A stretch of DNA of 39,189 nucleotides from a virus (taxonomy: Duplodnaviria > Heunggongvirae > Uroviricota > Caudoviricetes), in IMG/VR virus record IMGVR_UViG_2703718862_000013; one strand, given 5' to 3'. Made by a program: the position numbers and the translations under genes. Positions within the stretch are counted from its first letter, which is position 1. Each line of letters starts with the position of its first letter. Of the stretch, positions 124-5,174 are shown piece by piece. The notes below the pieces were generated by a model that saw only the letters and a program-made list of their open reading frames with translations, searched no databases and was not told the DNA's origin.

Positions 124-861
124 TCATTCACTCTCTTTCAAACCAGTTTTAACTGTTTGTGGTTTTGGGTAAGGCTGGACTTTGAATAGCTTTGTGTTGA
201 GGCGTTTTCTGGCCCTCTTGTTCAGAAACCGGATGTAACGAAACTGTCGGAACTTATGCACACTGGCTCTGTCGATATTAGCCCTCAGATGTTCACCTCG
301 TTGTCCGCCTCGTTTAATGGCATTCCTGCAAATCTCGTGATACCACTCGCCATCAAGTTCATAGAATATTGTTTCATGGCTGCCTACATAATCAAAATTG
401 CTTGCCTGATACACGACACCAAGACAGCCACAACGCTCATCTGCAAACGACTGAACCCACTGTACCTGCGGATAAAGCTGCCTGATTAGCTTGAGCGCGT
501 AACTGATTGCCCTTGATTCGGAATTTCTCGGCATACAGTCATGCATCCATAGCCGGTTCAGCTCCATATATTCTCGGTTCTGCGTACCCGTTACGACGCG
601 TGCACCACTGTTTGGGTTAAGGGCGTAACCCCATTGCATTACGCCAACAAGTTCCCGTTCTGAAAATATGCCCAGATGAAGGTAGGAGTTATTTACGAAA
701 CGGTGGCTGTAATGTTTATTGACGATAACCAGTCTGGCCAGCCAGCAACTTATTGTCTCAACCCGCAACTCACGGGAACCATAACCAACGATATTGTCGT
801 TATAGCGAATAAGTTCAGGCGTGCTGATGATACGGGATGTGACTTGCTTTCTGTTCCCCAC
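124..861 (-). CDS. mom: Mom DNA-modification protein (adenine modification, anti-restriction)
   Basis: Recalled Mu Mom signature [11 protein letters not shown]...[26 protein letters not shown]...[11 protein letters not shown]...RGGQRG...LRAN; last gene before phage end. Confidence 0.85.
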
Positions 862-1015
862 GACAGGATTTCCTTGTGTATGTGGGGTGCTCTGTGGCGC
901 TCGGAGATGTGATTTGATTGAGGGTTTTACAGCGCGGACATTTTACTTCCAGATAACTGAAACTGGCCCGTGCCAGTAGCTTATTGCAGTGTCGGCACCG
1001 TATGTTTCGATACAT
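815..1015 (-). CDS. com: Com zinc-finger translational activator of mom (ORF open to 1060; start at MYRNIRC likely)
   Basis: [10 protein letters not shown]...VKCPRCK matches Mu Com C4 zinc finger; overlaps mom 5' end as in Mu. Confidence 0.8.
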
Positions 1016-1039: not shown

Positions 1040-1210
1040 GTTGATGCCTTTCTCATGCAATCGATCGACAAAAACGATCGATTCGATTTGTTTAATTGAT
1101 ACAACAAATAGATTGAAAAGTCATCAACAATGATTCAGGGCGGTGATTATTTACTTAAAGAAAACGAAGAGTTAGGCGGTGAAAACGATCATAAAATGAT
1201 CATTTTATTG
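1040..1210 (-). promoter_or_regulatory. Candidate mom operon regulatory region with two palindromic GATC pairs
   Basis: CGATCG-acaaaaa-CGATCG (1051-1069) and GATCAT-aaa-ATGATC (1187-1201) upstream of com. Confidence 0.35.
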
Positions 1211-1275
1211 ACTTTTTATCCAGTGAAGGTAGGATCGCGCGTATATGTAGTATGTTTCAAATCAACAGGATACTA

Positions 1276-1314
1276 CATAAAAGGGAAACCCAGCATAGCT
1301 GGAACTATGCTGGG
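1276..1314 (-). terminator. Intrinsic terminator, minus strand, insulating the com-mom unit
   Basis: Perfect 10-bp stem CCCAGCATAG/CTATGCTGGG (1289-1314), 6-nt loop, U-rich tract after it on minus strand. Confidence 0.5.
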
Positions 1315-1501
1315 CCGATTTAGACAAGTTTGCATCAATGCTTTACTTCGGGACTACATAAATGGCGACTCAGATAGCGCGAACTATTCTGGGTCAATCT
1401 GTAAAAAACTGCATCAATGCTTCACTCTGAGCTCGTGGTGTATCCTATGATATTCCCCGGCCTCCTGTAAAGCAGAGATGCATCTGTTCAGGCAGGAGAA
1501 A

Positions 1502-1708
1502 ATGGATAAACTGACCACCGACCAAAAGTTACAGGCTGCGCGAATTGCAGCTGATATCACAATTGCAGCAATGACATCCACCAGTTGTGTCTTTACCTCT
1601 TTTCATACAGCTGGTGATTCATCAGCTATGCAATTATGGAACGCGTGCTTTTCTGATGTAATTCGGGCAATCAGCGAGTCAACTGACCCTCACGAACCGC
1701 AAAAATAG
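1502..1708 (+). CDS. Hypothetical small protein (68 aa from MDKLTT)
   Basis: AGGAGA Shine-Dalgarno before ATG at 1502; converges on 1671..1871. Confidence 0.3.
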   Translation: MDKLTTDQKLQAARIAADITIAAMTSTSCVFTSFHTAGDSSAMQLWNACFSDVIRAISESTDPHEPQK

Positions 1709-1871
1709 CGCATCTTGGGGTACACAGGATCTGCATCGCTATCCACATTGCAGTGGTGAAGTTTCGATCCTGTAATGTATTTTCATCAAGTCCTGAACGT
1801 AGCGCATTGATAATTTCTGCGCTTAATATTTCCAGACCTTTGGTATCGGGCTGCTTTTTGTTCTTGTCCAT
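1671..1871 (-). CDS. Hypothetical small protein (66 aa)
   Basis: GAGGAA Shine-Dalgarno 7 nt upstream of ATG; follows terminator/promoter-like element. Confidence 0.4.
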   Translation of the reverse strand: MDKNKKQPDTKGLEILSAEIINALRSGLDENTLQDRNFTTAMWIAMQILCTPRCAIFAVREGQLTR

Positions 1872-1907
1872 GATTATTTCCTCTGACTGGTATATACATC
1901 GCCCATG

Positions 1908-1945
1908 AAAATCAAACCGACAGGAGAAGCTGTCGGTTTGTATTG
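1908..1945. terminator. Bidirectional terminator-like hairpin
   Basis: Stem AACCGACAG/CTGTCGGTT with T-rich flanks on both strands; sits after stop of 1946..2191. Confidence 0.45.
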
Positions 1946-2191
1946 TTACATCATGGCACTGTCAGTTCCGGGCTGAACCGGCTCTGGTTGCTCTACGGGC
2001 TGAGGCTCATTCTCCGTGCTGTTTTCAGCCGGAGAATGGCCAACCATTCGGGCCAGCACTTCATCAACATATGCGTCGATTTGTGCCTCAAAATCCTTGC
2101 GAACCTGCGCCTTCAGCACGCGGTTCACTTCTTCAGAATAAAGTGCCTGTTTGACAAGCTCTTCAGTAACCGTGCCTTTAATCTCTGGCAT
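1946..2191 (-). CDS. Hypothetical protein, acidic with Pro/Glu-rich C-terminus
   Basis: ORF in operon position after esterase gene. Confidence 0.45.
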   Translation of the reverse strand: MPEIKGTVTEELVKQALYSEEVNRVLKAQVRKDFEAQIDAYVDEVLARMVGHSPAENSTENEPQPVEQPEPVQPGTDSAMM

Positions 2192-2226: not shown

Positions 2227-2412
2227 TTAAATCTGACCGGAGTCTTTCGGCTGCGGCATTACAGCACCGCTTTTTATCTTTTCCTCTGCGGCTGCATCAA
2301 TTTTATTTCGAAAATAATTTCGGATAATTTTGTAACCTCCGCTGAGGAGATAAAGTAGACACACACACGTGCAAAAATAAAGCATAAATGTATGTAGTAT
2401 TGGCATAATCAC
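2227..2412 (-). CDS. Hypothetical small membrane protein
   Basis: Single hydrophobic helix ILHTFMLYFCTCVCLLYLLSGGY; likely ATG at 2406 with GGTGA upstream. Confidence 0.4.
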   Translation of the reverse strand: MIMPILHTFMLYFCTCVCLLYLLSGGYKIIRNYFRNKIDAAAEEKIKSGAVMPQPKDSGQI

Positions 2413-2441: not shown

Positions 2442-4523
2442 TCATTTATTCACATTAGACGGAGAGACCGCATCGTTAACCTGCACTTTAATTGTGTCAA
2501 ACAACATCGGGTAAGTGGCTGCATTGCCGGTAATATCGGTCAGTGTCAGTTGATCCACCGTGAACCCGGCATTCACCCACTTCACAAGTTCAAATGGTTC
2601 ACCATCTTTCCCGTCCAGAACTGGGGTAACACTCATGCTATTACCACCTGCAAACCGTAACGAGAGCGTATGCCATTCATGATCAAAGACACCATACGAT
2701 CCTATCTGTTGACTTCCGCTCCCTTTGTGATACATCACATTCAGGTTAGCTGAATCCGTTTGCAGGAAACATGATGCGATGAGGTTATTTTTTCCGTCAC
2801 CGTCAGGCCAGTTACTTACAGCCCAGTAAATACCAACACCATACCGGTTTTCCGCAATGCCCGCATCCGATGGAATTTTGAAACGGAGGGAAATATCACC
2901 ACCTCTGGCGAACAAATCCCTGGCATTATCAGCTGTGATCGGATGATACATTTTCCATGAGGCCATGCTGTTAGGCGCTTTATTCACCCTTAACGCTTTG
3001 TTACCACCTGTTGCAGCAGCATCCGTGACAAAGGTTGCTTTTCCGGAAGCCGCATTCCACCCCTGATCTTTCATTGGTTCTGTCGGGGCGTTTGCAGTAT
3101 ACGAAACGATGATCTTCATCTGATCGCTCACGTCCTTCACATCCCCGGTGGGTTCAGGCTCACTCTTACCGGTATCAGAATGTTCTGTTGCCGTTACACC
3201 GCGGAAGAAAGCAGATTTTTGTCCTGACAATGTCAGAATCGCTGTTGCCAGACGGTCTGAAATAATTCCACGGCGCGCCCATGAACTGAAATGGCTTGCC
3301 CTGTCGTTTGATGTCCAGTTAGTCGAATCGCGACTTATGGCACCATAATAGCCAATACCTGGAATATCCGGGTCTTCATCTGGATTATTTGTCGGTACAT
3401 TTTTTCCATTTTCATCCACAACAAATGGAACAAAGTGAATGTTCTTTGCTTCATTAGCATATTTGCCATAAACAGCTTTGTATTGTTCTGGATATGTATT
3501 TTTCCAGTAATACGTCGTATCACCACAGATCCACGGTACAGAAGCCATATCTCCGGCTGGAGATTGCGCAGAAAAAGCCGAAAGTTCACGCCTGAATGTT
3601 TCGACCATCGTCACAAACAGACCGGAATGTTCAGCATGTTTTCCTGTTTTCAGATCATTCTCGCCCTGCATCCAGACAACGGACAGGAGAATATTTCTGG
3701 GGTTACTGCTGAGAGCCGCTTTTGTTCGGTTAACAAGATCGCTGAACAAAGGTTTATTGACTCCCCAGCGCGATGATGCAGATGTTGCTCCGGAAGCTTC
3801 AGTAAATTCACCATCAGCACCATCGGTAAATGCAGAGCCTCCTCTGGCACAGGGAACCAGAAGGATACCAGCCTCTTCCGGGATAAAGGGCAGGAGTTTT
3901 TTTGCAATATGCAAACCCTGGCCGACACAACCATACTGACCTTTTGAAAGATCTGCTTTTGGATGATTATGGTTACTCATATCCAGCACATCATGAAGAC
4001 AGTGATCTGCCGGAATTATATCGTTGTAGGCGCATTCAACCCCGCCAGGTGTAACCGTGTTACGGCGAGCCAGCTGTTTAATACGTGGATCAGGTCGATC
4101 ATAGGTATCAGGCAAAGGAAGACCTTCACCAAATGACGATGCATTCGACTGACCAGCAATAACAACCACGTAATACCAGGACGGAGTTTGACCTGCAACT
4201 TTATCTCCTGCTGAGGAAGTGTATGTTTCCGCATTGTTCCAGTCTGACGGTTCAGTAGTACCGGCAACATCAGCACTTAACGGAATGACAGCACCAATAC
4301 CCGCTCCGGTAATTTCCACGTTCGGATCACCGGATACTGGCCTTACCCACAGGCAATCCCGTGTATTAAAACTGATGAGACAGTCAGCAAATGTCATACC
4401 TCCTTTCGTTTCAGCCGGAGGAAAGGGAGCCTCAAGAAATGCCGCTGTACCACCGGAAACTTTAACGGTAAAGTTTCCGGGCATTGATGATAGTTGAACC
4501 CATTTGGACGTCATAATATTCAT
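2442..4523 (-). CDS. nanS-p: NanS-p-like sialate 9-O-acetylesterase (SGNH/SASA domain) with N- and C-terminal extra domains
   Basis: VVVIAGQSNA...GEGLPLP, PRIKQLAR, LHIAKKLLPFIP, VPCARGGSAFT, WMQGENDL, CGDTTYYWK, EDPD..GYYG, ARRGIISDR match recalled NanS (YjhS) family; AGGA RBS. Confidence 0.75.
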   Translation of the reverse strand: MNIMTSKWVQLSSMPGNFTVKVSGGTAAFLEAPFPPAETKGGMTFADCLISFNTRDCLWVRPVSGDPNVEITGAGIGAVIPLSADVAGTTEPSDWNNAETYTSSAGDKVAGQTPSWYYVVVIAGQSNASSFGEGLPLPDTYDRPDPRIKQLARRNTVTPGGVECAYNDIIPADHCLHDVLDMSNHNHPKADLSKGQYGCVGQGLHIAKKLLPFIPEEAGILLVPCARGGSAFTDGADGEFTEASGATSASSRWGVNKPLFSDLVNRTKAALSSNPRNILLSVVWMQGENDLKTGKHAEHSGLFVTMVETFRRELSAFSAQSPAGDMASVPWICGDTTYYWKNTYPEQYKAVYGKYANEAKNIHFVPFVVDENGKNVPTNNPDEDPDIPGIGYYGAISRDSTNWTSNDRASHFSSWARRGIISDRLATAILTLSGQKSAFFRGVTATEHSDTGKSEPEPTGDVKDVSDQMKIIVSYTANAPTEPMKDQGWNAASGKATFVTDAAATGGNKALRVNKAPNSMASWKMYHPITADNARDLFARGGDISLRFKIPSDAGIAENRYGVGIYWAVSNWPDGDGKNNLIASCFLQTDSANLNVMYHKGSGSQQIGSYGVFDHEWHTLSLRFAGGNSMSVTPVLDGKDGEPFELVKWVNAGFTVDQLTLTDITGNAATYPMLFDTIKVQVNDAVSPSNVNK

Positions 4524-4613
4524 CCTGTTCCTGAATAAACAGAATTATCATATCCACAGACCGATAAACGCCATTTTGCGTTAATTCAGTAAAGGCCCAA
4601 CAAAGGGAGCGTC

Positions 4614-5174
4614 TTATTTTTCCAAAACGCTCGCAGGATAATAACGATAAAGGGTTGAAAGGCCGATATCAAAAATAAGTGCCACCTGTCTTCGGCTGAC
4701 CCCCCCGGCCAGTAAACGCCCGACCTGCTCGTATTGTTCCTGCGTGAGACGACGGGGTCTGCCGCCGGTTCGTCCCCTTTCACGGGCAGCTGTAAGACCA
4801 GCCCGTGTCCGTTCGACAATCAATTCACGCTCCATTTCTGCCAGCGCACCCATTATGTGAAAAAAGAAGCGCCCCATGGGGGTTGACGTATCAATGCTGT
4901 CAGTAAGACTACGAAAATTTATCCCCTGTTGCTGTAATTCATCTGTCAGCGCAACAAGGTGGCGCATACTGCGCCCCAGCCTGTCCAGTTTCCAGACCAT
5001 CAGCGTGTCACCGGGTTTTAGTTTCTTCAGTGCCCGCTTCAGTCCCGGCCGCTGCGTTGTTTTTCCGCTCATTTTATCTTCAAAAATCTGCTCACATCCT
5101 GCACATTCCAGCGCATTTCTTTGTAAACCTGTGTTCTGGTCATTTGTTGATACGCGTATATAGCCAATCAGCAT
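4614..5174 (-). CDS. gin: Site-specific DNA invertase, serine recombinase of Gin/Hin/Pin/Cin family
   Basis: MLIGYIRVSTNDQNT...GDTLMVWKLDRLGRSM...GRPRRLT is near-identical in pattern to recalled Mu Gin; adjacent to invertible segment. Confidence 0.95.
   Translation of the reverse strand: MLIGYIRVSTNDQNTGLQRNALECAGCEQIFEDKMSGKTTQRPGLKRALKKLKPGDTLMVWKLDRLGRSMRHLVALTDELQQQGINFRSLTDSIDTSTPMGRFFFHIMGALAEMERELIVERTRAGLTAARERGRTGGRPRRLTQEQYEQVGRLLAGGVSRRQVALIFDIGLSTLYRYYPASVLEK

Follow-up and report, generated by a model that had tools for sequence, protein, structure and literature searches.

In temperate phages and plasmids, switches based on convergent transcription or antisense RNA are known (e.g. 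pR-pL interference in coliphage 186, sar-ant in P22 and oop-cII in lambda); they overlap at 5' regions or act through a dedicated small RNA (sRNA), and their control has been shown experimentally. Phages may also carry morons, i.e. accessory genes that are autonomous and lie as insertions among conserved phage genes (a concept of Juhala et al. 2000, via PMC4104026), and at moron insertion sites in lambdoid prophages of enterohaemorrhagic Escherichia coli (EHEC) convergent genes were found for sRNAs, which are non-coding, Hfq-bound and 51-60 nt long (Tree et al. 2014, PMC4104026). For phage Mu, the mom control region contains a divergent overlapping promoter, momP2, and leftward transcription is documented (PMC3378877). 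Here we describe two small open reading frames (ORFs) that converge and overlap in a stretch of 39,189 bases (IMG/VR record IMGVR_UViG_2703718862_000013, hereafter the window), which represents a Mu-like prophage in reverse orientation with nearly all long ORFs on the minus strand. Conservation and substitution patterns show both to be genuine protein-coding genes and parts of one cassette, conserved in its tail-to-tail layout and restricted to Mu-like prophages of E. coli and Salmonella enterica, whose expression may be of an either/or type brought about by antisense transcription.

The cassette resembles morons in that its genes are small and without recognisable phage function, in that the content of its slot varies among collinear Mu-like prophages (the pair, a zinc-ribbon ORF, or nothing) and in that the slot is bounded by terminator-like hairpins. 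The pair was present in 17 of 5426 E. coli genomes, with the wider region matching about 217; in related collinear phages it is replaced by the zinc-ribbon ORF (Sp18, LC727881) or lacks its plus-strand gene (AST198, CI5). Unlike morons, it comprises two converging overlapping genes and not one promoter-gene-terminator unit, and in G+C content it does not stand out from its surroundings; the plus-strand promoter candidates are matches to the consensus only and no private sigma-70 promoter is demonstrable for the minus-strand gene. With the antisense switches of 186, P22 and lambda it shares two opposed transcription units that would be read through each other with an either/or logic, but here it is the 3' ends of two protein genes that overlap, and the control is a predicted one. 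The convergent sRNA genes of EHEC are comparable as short transcription units beside prophage cargo, yet the present pair consists of two protein-coding genes under purifying selection, and EcOnc37, the only sRNA of the Sakai prophage Sp18 in the list obtained by Hfq cross-linking and analysis of cDNA (Hfq-CRAC), lies elsewhere (PMC4104026). The cassette adjoins com-mom, and momP2 offers, by analogy only, a parallel to the plus-strand transcript; in Mu itself, no genes separate gin from com. Searches of the phage collection gave no DNA similarity to the cassette region beyond two Mu-like inserts.

Two coding genes in one convergent cassette

The first 6 kb of the window contain 61 ORFs of at least 30 aa; frames of such size are common by chance, and the case for coding therefore rests on conservation and substitution pattern. 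The first-pass annotation had pointed to a plus-strand and a minus-strand ORF that converge with a 38-nt overlap, each behind its own ribosome-binding site (Table 1). This geometry was confirmed from the sequence and the ORF list, and both AGGAGA and GAGGAA are present, the former at a short and the latter at a good spacing. Its further suggestion, that both ORFs are real genes of the cargo region, is borne out by the homologues, the conserved arrangement and the synonymous excess described below. An in-frame upstream ATG at 1478 would lengthen the plus-strand ORF to 76 aa, but the start was assigned to position 1502 because homologues begin at the same M-D/E-K-L-T. The Shine-Dalgarno sequence of this gene is poorly conserved in E. 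coli variants (AGGAAA, AGAGCA), and the Salmonella genes have a start region of the type GAGGA-N6-GTG/TTG. Segment 1061-2441 of the window is 100% identical to the prophage of E. coli STEC2018-607, in whose genome the plus-strand gene is without annotation by the Prokaryotic Genome Annotation Pipeline (PGAP) or RefSeq; in some GenBank drafts it is annotated, always as "hypothetical protein".

A word-indexed search returned only near-identical relatives for each protein. Relatives of the plus-strand protein were sought by exhaustive HMMER search over 1.84 billion representatives, which revealed two proteins of the same length class, P0010 (66 aa) and P0011 (65 aa), with 38-47% identity, the same start position and a hydrophobic pattern shared over the full length. 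Both are encoded in Mu-like prophages of Salmonella enterica, and at each locus a 63-aa gene converges on the plus-strand homologue with an overlap of 26 nt. The product of this gene is a homologue of the minus-strand protein of the window (38% identical), with the conserved core motif F-x-x-A-M-W-x-A/S-M-Q common to both clades; both proteins of the pair are about 38% identical between the E. coli and Salmonella clades. The overlap is constant within each clade, i.e. 26 nt in Salmonella and 38 nt in E. coli, and a partner ORF, called or uncalled, was present in every fetched Salmonella locus with an intact minus-strand gene except the deletion variant L024. The flanks differ by clade: one side has DUF826 or DUF1353/ILEI, and the other com-mom, com-dcm or a pair formed by a 257-aa gene and a HEPN gene. 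No third clade emerged from scans of species-representative genomes, metagenome contigs and IMG/VR, and in the databases scanned no member of the family occurred outside the Mu-like prophages of E. coli and Salmonella.

Both genes bear the marks of purifying selection. Within clades, the ratio of nonsynonymous to synonymous substitution rates (dN/dS) was 0.05-0.28 for the minus-strand and 0.10-0.5 for the plus-strand gene, and one-sided Fisher tests for a proportion of synonymous differences (pS) exceeding that of nonsynonymous ones (pN) gave p values of 1.6e-7 to 1.4e-3 and of 7e-5 to 0.047, correspondingly. In the comparison between clades, codons 1-27 of the plus-strand gene had pS of 0.62-0.72 versus pN of 0.23-0.24. 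Moreover, in one comparison of Salmonella plus-strand genes, alignment columns 27-58, which lack an open antisense frame, yielded a synonymous excess with p 0.0018. Within the overlap, the alignment of the window with variant L004 revealed substitutions that are synonymous in the minus-strand frame and replacements in the plus-strand frame.

Neither protein matches Pfam, NCBIfam, PADLOC or any PDB sequence, and tblastn against 50,697 phage records gave no true match with the window proteins or their Salmonella versions. In PHROGs, weak matches only to families of unknown function were obtained, namely phrog_25148 for the plus-strand protein and phrog_21398 for the Salmonella minus-strand protein. 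AlphaFold2 (AF2) predicts, with low confidence, that both are small, soluble and all-helical: the predicted local distance difference test score (pLDDT) was 67 for the plus-strand protein (helices 6-26, 28-37 and 40-59) and 66 for the minus-strand protein (helices 10-27, 30-33, 36-49 and 52-64), with a predicted template-modelling score (pTM) of about 0.36, and the C-terminal residues 65-68 of the former, with pLDDT below 50, are unstructured in the model. Foldseek returned no match for either of these models, and the fold comparison is uninformative because of their low confidence. The maximum Kyte-Doolittle mean over 19 residues was 1.23 for the plus-strand and 1.53 for the minus-strand protein, whereas the membrane protein encoded by the nearby DUF1378 gene reaches 2.07; by this measure no membrane-spanning segment was detected in either.

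Matches of the plus-strand protein to proteins of 2,092 and 2,113 aa (P0008: HCBP_related repeats) were considered repeat-inflated chance matches and rejected; the matched region is not conserved in Salmonella. Another ORF of 55 aa on the minus strand (1414-1581), which recurs in the other clade, was judged not to be coding: outside the plus-strand gene its differences, read by eye, are mostly replacements with no third-position bias, and within that gene its third codon positions coincide with those of the plus-strand frame.

Hairpins, promoter-like sites and a conserved leader

According to the first-pass annotation, a hairpin upstream of the minus-strand ORF, at 1908-1935, would act both as a terminator of the esterase transcript and as a possible -35 region. 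The hairpin itself is real; its position was wrong by 5 bases, the actual structure lying to the right, at 1913-1940. The stem measures 11 bp and the loop 6 nt; on the minus strand the energy is -17 kcal/mol and the z-score -4.4, and 0 of 200 shuffled sequences folded as well. Its role as a terminator is credible on the minus strand, behind the esterase/DUF1378/DUF826 genes. In the L004-type variant, a G.U pair on the minus strand corresponds to an A.C mismatch on the plus strand, and in Sp18 the position is compensated to G-C, which suggests that the hairpin works at least in minus-strand RNA. The -35 role, on the other hand, could not be sustained: no sigma-70-like site was found from the hairpin to the ATG of the minus-strand gene, where, by eye, the best -35-like hexamer, TTGATT, stands only 13 nt from the TATATA box. 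A private promoter for this gene is also at odds with the Salmonella loci, in which the gene begins 63 nt after DUF1353 or shares 4 nt with it; such close spacing marks the Salmonella gene as the distal member of a rightward cargo operon and not as a unit with its own promoter.

On the other side of the pair, two copies of a conserved hairpin lie in a tandem duplication (1272-1347 and 1353-1426); their stems are retained via different sequences across variants, and a T-rich tail comes after each of them on the minus strand. The minus-strand site TTTACA-18 nt-TAGGAT is the only promoter-like site common to the window and to variants L008 and L014. The plus-strand candidate at 1208-1235 has a counterpart in L014, TTGACG-16-TATAAT at 3901-3928, with 11 of 12 matches, also by consensus only. 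The promoter scan detected no sigma-70-like site directly upstream of either ORF, and the terminator scan no terminator-like structure between the two genes, such hairpins being located only outside the pair.

The plus-strand gene is preceded by a leader of about 105 nt (window about 1368-1480), which has matches in about 214 E. coli genomes and occurs in Mu-like prophages of Salmonella as well. It is non-coding, as indels between variants break every frame. Its most invariant features fall on the minus strand, where the unchanging TTTACA-18-TAGGAT is succeeded by some 40 nt with the near-palindromes GCATCAATGC and GAGCTC, by the hairpin, whose pairing is preserved by compensatory changes, and by a T-rich tail. 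Rfam gave no match at E <= 1 over positions 900-2600, and the Sakai Hfq-CRAC list names no RNA at the position of the leader. The leader could encode a candidate minus-strand RNA of about 75-150 nt; alternatively, it could be a promoter/terminator/operator module for whichever plus-strand cargo follows.

With no terminator between the two genes, each transcript should run antisense through the whole of the other gene. The minus-strand gene is on the main rightward strand of the phage, where it ends the cargo block, and a transcript with this 66-aa gene would continue across the entire plus-strand gene. The plus-strand gene points the opposite way, behind the conserved leader, and its transcript would cross the whole minus-strand gene before reaching the hairpin at 1913-1940. 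Mutual antisense action or transcriptional interference between the two is plausible from this layout, and interference is what would be expected by default. Expression would then be either/or, through transcriptional interference and the formation of RNA duplexes: at low rightward phage transcription the leftward plus-strand gene would be made, while rightward transcription would give the minus-strand protein and silence the plus-strand gene.

Table 1. Coordinates of the gene pair, its putative signals and the neighbouring genes (window positions unless a locus is named)
Feature	Position	Strand	Remarks
mom	124-861	-	Pfam Mom, PGAP
com (Zn-ribbon Com)	815-1015	-	Pfam Zn_ribbon_Com, PGAP
Promoter-like TTGACT-16-TAGGAT	1208-1235	+	Consensus match only; possible source of plus-strand transcript
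Hairpin copy 1	1287-1316	-	Strongest minus-strand terminator-like site; stem of 13 pairs followed by TCCCTTTTAT; between mom regulatory region and pair
Hairpin copy 2 of the ~80-nt tandem unit	1368-1394	-	Conserved; weak T-tail on minus strand
Promoter-like TTTACA-18 nt-TAGGAT	1442-1471	-	Hexamers and spacing kept, spacer varies, in E. coli and Salmonella variants
Shine-Dalgarno-like AGGAGA of plus-strand gene	1494-1499	+	2 nt before ATG, short spacing
Plus-strand gene, 68 aa	1502-1708	+	ATG 1502-1504, TAG 1706-1708; homologues and synonymous excess
Tail-to-tail overlap of coding regions	1671-1708	both	38 nt
Minus-strand gene, 66 aa	1671-1871	-	ATG 1871-1869, stop 1673-1671; PGAP WP_001536755.1, hypothetical protein
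Shine-Dalgarno GAGGAA of minus-strand gene	1878-1883	-	6 nt before ATG, good spacing
Hairpin, terminator-like on both strands	1913-1940	-	3' of DUF826; would close the plus-strand transcription unit
DUF826 gene	1946-2191	-	Flanks pair; Pfam
DUF1378 gene, small membrane protein	2227-2412	-	Flanks pair; Pfam
SASA + DUF6645 esterase, NanS-p-like	2442-4523	-	Flanks pair; Pfam
Gin-type invertase (PGAP: recombinase family protein)	4614-5174	-	PGAP/ORF list
Zn-ribbon ORF, 53-56 aa, four-cysteine (MDKEPVCPACK...)	L001 4365-4535; L025 about 3636-3806; L036/L037	+	AAGGAG site

Gene loss and competing explanations

On at least three separate occasions the plus-strand gene was inactivated while its minus-strand partner remained intact. 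In the near-identical strain CP55 (L003) it carries the nonsense mutation W46*. Prophages of the AST198/CI5 type (L006, L007, L020) are devoid of window positions ~1149-1612, i.e. of the leader, both left hairpins and two thirds of the plus-strand gene, and the repeat GGTGATT at both ends of the missing segment (1141-1148 and 1611-1618) indicates a microhomology-mediated deletion. In Salmonella L024, a deletion likewise inactivates the plus-strand gene, again with an intact partner. The reverse situation is represented by an E. coli allele, recorded in 11 contigs, in which the minus-strand protein stops at codon 50 and the plus-strand gene is intact. Where the plus-strand gene is replaced or deleted in L034-L037, the minus-strand gene is often degenerate too, and two Salmonella types carry both genes in degenerate form.

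We interpret the pair as a conserved accessory cassette with antisense either/or expression, and assign to this interpretation a probability of roughly 0.55. Several observations weigh against it. No convincing sigma-70 promoter was found next to the plus-strand gene, and in E. coli this gene has a weak ribosome-binding site that differs among variants. Each gene may be broken or deleted while the other is intact, so coupling is not obligatory. In two Salmonella subtypes, the plus-strand proteins differ with dN of 0.43 versus 0.04 for the minus-strand proteins, and hence do not co-vary as would be expected for a tight protein-protein pair. Furthermore, the cassette covers only about 370 bp, so that co-inheritance could reflect physical linkage alone.

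The strongest competitor, which we consider possible though clearly less probable, is that of two independent moron-type accessory genes placed tail to tail, without regulatory or functional link, the overlap being a matter of compaction with the plus-strand ORF ending at a stop within the minus-strand gene. It accords with the pattern of substitutions in the overlap between the window and L004, silent in the minus-strand frame only, and with the unstructured C-terminal tail predicted for the plus-strand protein, as well as with the dispensability of either gene and the lack of co-variation between the proteins. It is less easily reconciled with the recurrence of the same convergent overlapping geometry at ~38% identity, in another host genus and between different flanks, or with the frequent degeneration of the minus-strand gene in L034-L037; and antisense transcription would be hard to avoid without a terminator between the genes.

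A more elaborate proposal, which extends either/or expression to a three-part antisense-wired switch of a kind so far undescribed, appears unlikely to us. The plus-strand gene, transcribed leftward, would here provide a small effector protein in the lysogen, a conserved short minus-strand RNA started at the 1471-1442 promoter and ended by one or both covarying hairpins would control the plus-strand leader, and transcription or the product of the minus-strand gene would shut the effector off in lytic growth, with exclusion, defence or addiction as the function; the leader would be portable to other cargo, e.g. the zinc-ribbon ORF of Sp18.

Still more doubtful is a toxin-antitoxin or abortive-infection-like module, in which the plus-strand protein would be a growth-inhibiting effector and the minus-strand protein and/or an antisense RNA its antidote. 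A compact two-gene cassette with small products and a possible antisense RNA on a mobile element is what type I and type II systems have in common with the present locus, whose slot is otherwise held by mom, dcm or a HEPN pair. Weak or non-ATG starts of the plus-strand gene (GTG or TTG in Salmonella, short Shine-Dalgarno spacing in E. coli) and its repeated inactivation beside an intact partner would fit such an effector, and the conserved minus-strand promoter-like site with a hairpin upstream of it could specify a regulatory RNA, although neither Rfam nor the Sakai Hfq-CRAC list holds a match to it. In contrast to type II systems, the genes are convergent with a 3' overlap and do not form a co-directional operon, and no toxin fold or DNA-binding antitoxin was recognised (no Pfam, NCBIfam, PADLOC or PDB match; Foldseek null on low-confidence models). 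In contrast to type I systems, neither product is a small hydrophobic membrane toxin, as both hydropathy maxima stay below that of the DUF1378 protein. The losses bear on the assignment of roles as well. The minus-strand protein as a toxin is contradicted because the plus-strand gene was lost beside an intact minus-strand gene, and the plus-strand protein as a toxin survives only if the minus-strand protein truncated at residue 50 in 11 contigs still works; a residual function of that truncated protein is conceivable. Since each gene was lost while the other stayed intact, i.e. in either direction, the classical toxin-antitoxin reading is poorly supported.

Finally, the view that only the minus-strand ORF is a gene, as in RefSeq, and the plus-strand ORF a chance frame in its 3' untranslated region draws on the missing PGAP call in the identical genome, the premature stop in a near-identical strain and the poor Shine-Dalgarno spacing, but it is largely refuted and highly improbable in view of same-length homologues with a shared start and full-length hydrophobic pattern, of the significant synonymous excess in the plus-strand gene, in one Salmonella comparison also in columns devoid of an antisense frame, and of the higher pS than pN in its first 27 codons between clades.

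The accessory slot and the surrounding prophage

The cassette occupies a variable accessory slot between the rightward cargo that follows the invertase and the com-mom or com-dcm module. In the window, the serine invertase, the Com zinc ribbon and Mom are encoded in Mu order, all on the minus strand, as in the right end of a Mu-like phage, and a SASA/DUF6645 esterase followed by DUF1378 and DUF826 constitutes a NanS-p cargo block of lambdoid type. This block, typical of lambdoid Shiga toxin (Stx) prophages, is placed here between gin and com of a Mu-like phage, with the gene pair between DUF826 and the com control region. It matches many E. coli genomes besides the 17 pair carriers, including O157:H7 strains, and because so many genomes match the block without the pair, the two small ORFs are not regarded as part of it. 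In some Salmonella relatives, a 777-784-aa esterase is followed by DUF1353 in place of DUF1378/DUF826. A terminator-like hairpin on the minus strand (4607-4632; 10 pairs then CCTTTGTTGG) covers the stop codon of the invertase gene, from which it follows that the esterase block may need a promoter of its own; none is evident.

In STEC2018-607, the prophage is inserted in bcsA and its left end adjoins the truncated bcsA gene. Repeated ATTTGATAC motifs at positions 1-110, at the start of the window and beside the bcsA junction of that identical genome, look like transposase-binding repeats of a prophage right end. Upstream of com, four GATC sites are found at 1063-1201, two of them within the palindrome AATCGATCGACAAAAACGATCGATT at 1059-1083, which also scores as a plus-strand terminator-like site, and two near 1187 and 1198; these clusters recall the Dam/OxyR control of Mu mom.

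The slot may contain other cargo. In the O157 Sakai prophage Sp18, as in the Mu-like insert of LC727881, positions 1484-1908 of the window are replaced by about 190 bp with a zinc-ribbon ORF on the plus strand behind the same upstream sequence, and in a Salmonella variant such an ORF, together with a terminator, is inserted over the 5' part of the plus-strand gene. The zinc-ribbon ORF follows the conserved leader, has a terminator of its own in Salmonella and gives weak matches only (Trm112p-like; phrog_9584, of unknown function). The plus-strand ORF at 1130-1450 (106 aa) was rejected as a gene and is taken as a remnant: PGAP labels it "frameshifted", indels between variants do not keep its frame, and only its first 77 residues match phrog_26524 (phrog positions 1-75). 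In Sakai, a 1-nt difference fuses this frame to the zinc-ribbon ORF, giving ECs_4996 (L025 3342-3806, 154 aa), the upstream part of which overlaps the GATC-rich mom control region; this annotation is probably an artefact. No mention of ECs4995-4997 was found in the literature.

The neighbouring module varies too. In Salmonella L008 (3526-4839), com-mom is replaced by three plus-strand genes of 257, 123 and 43 aa, the 123-aa product having a HEPN domain (Pfam HEPN, PADLOC HEPN_IX), and other Salmonella variants carry com-dcm in place of com-mom. Such exchanges make the right end look like a hotspot for defence and anti-restriction genes, and with mom, dcm or a HEPN pair as neighbours of the slot, a host-interaction or defence-related accessory role is our best guess for the cassette.

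We thus class the pair as a moderately interesting, uncharacterised cassette of Mu-like prophages whose function is probably accessory. Its analysis adds a conserved small protein gene under selection which RefSeq omits from an identical complete genome, and which is inherited along with another orphan gene, the two forming a fixed convergent unit in E. coli and Salmonella prophages. The position beside anti-restriction genes (mom, dcm) or a HEPN pair makes the cassette a reasonable candidate for a function in phage-host conflict, and its antisense wiring, as deduced from the nucleotide sequence, would offer a compact natural case for the study of control by convergent transcription.

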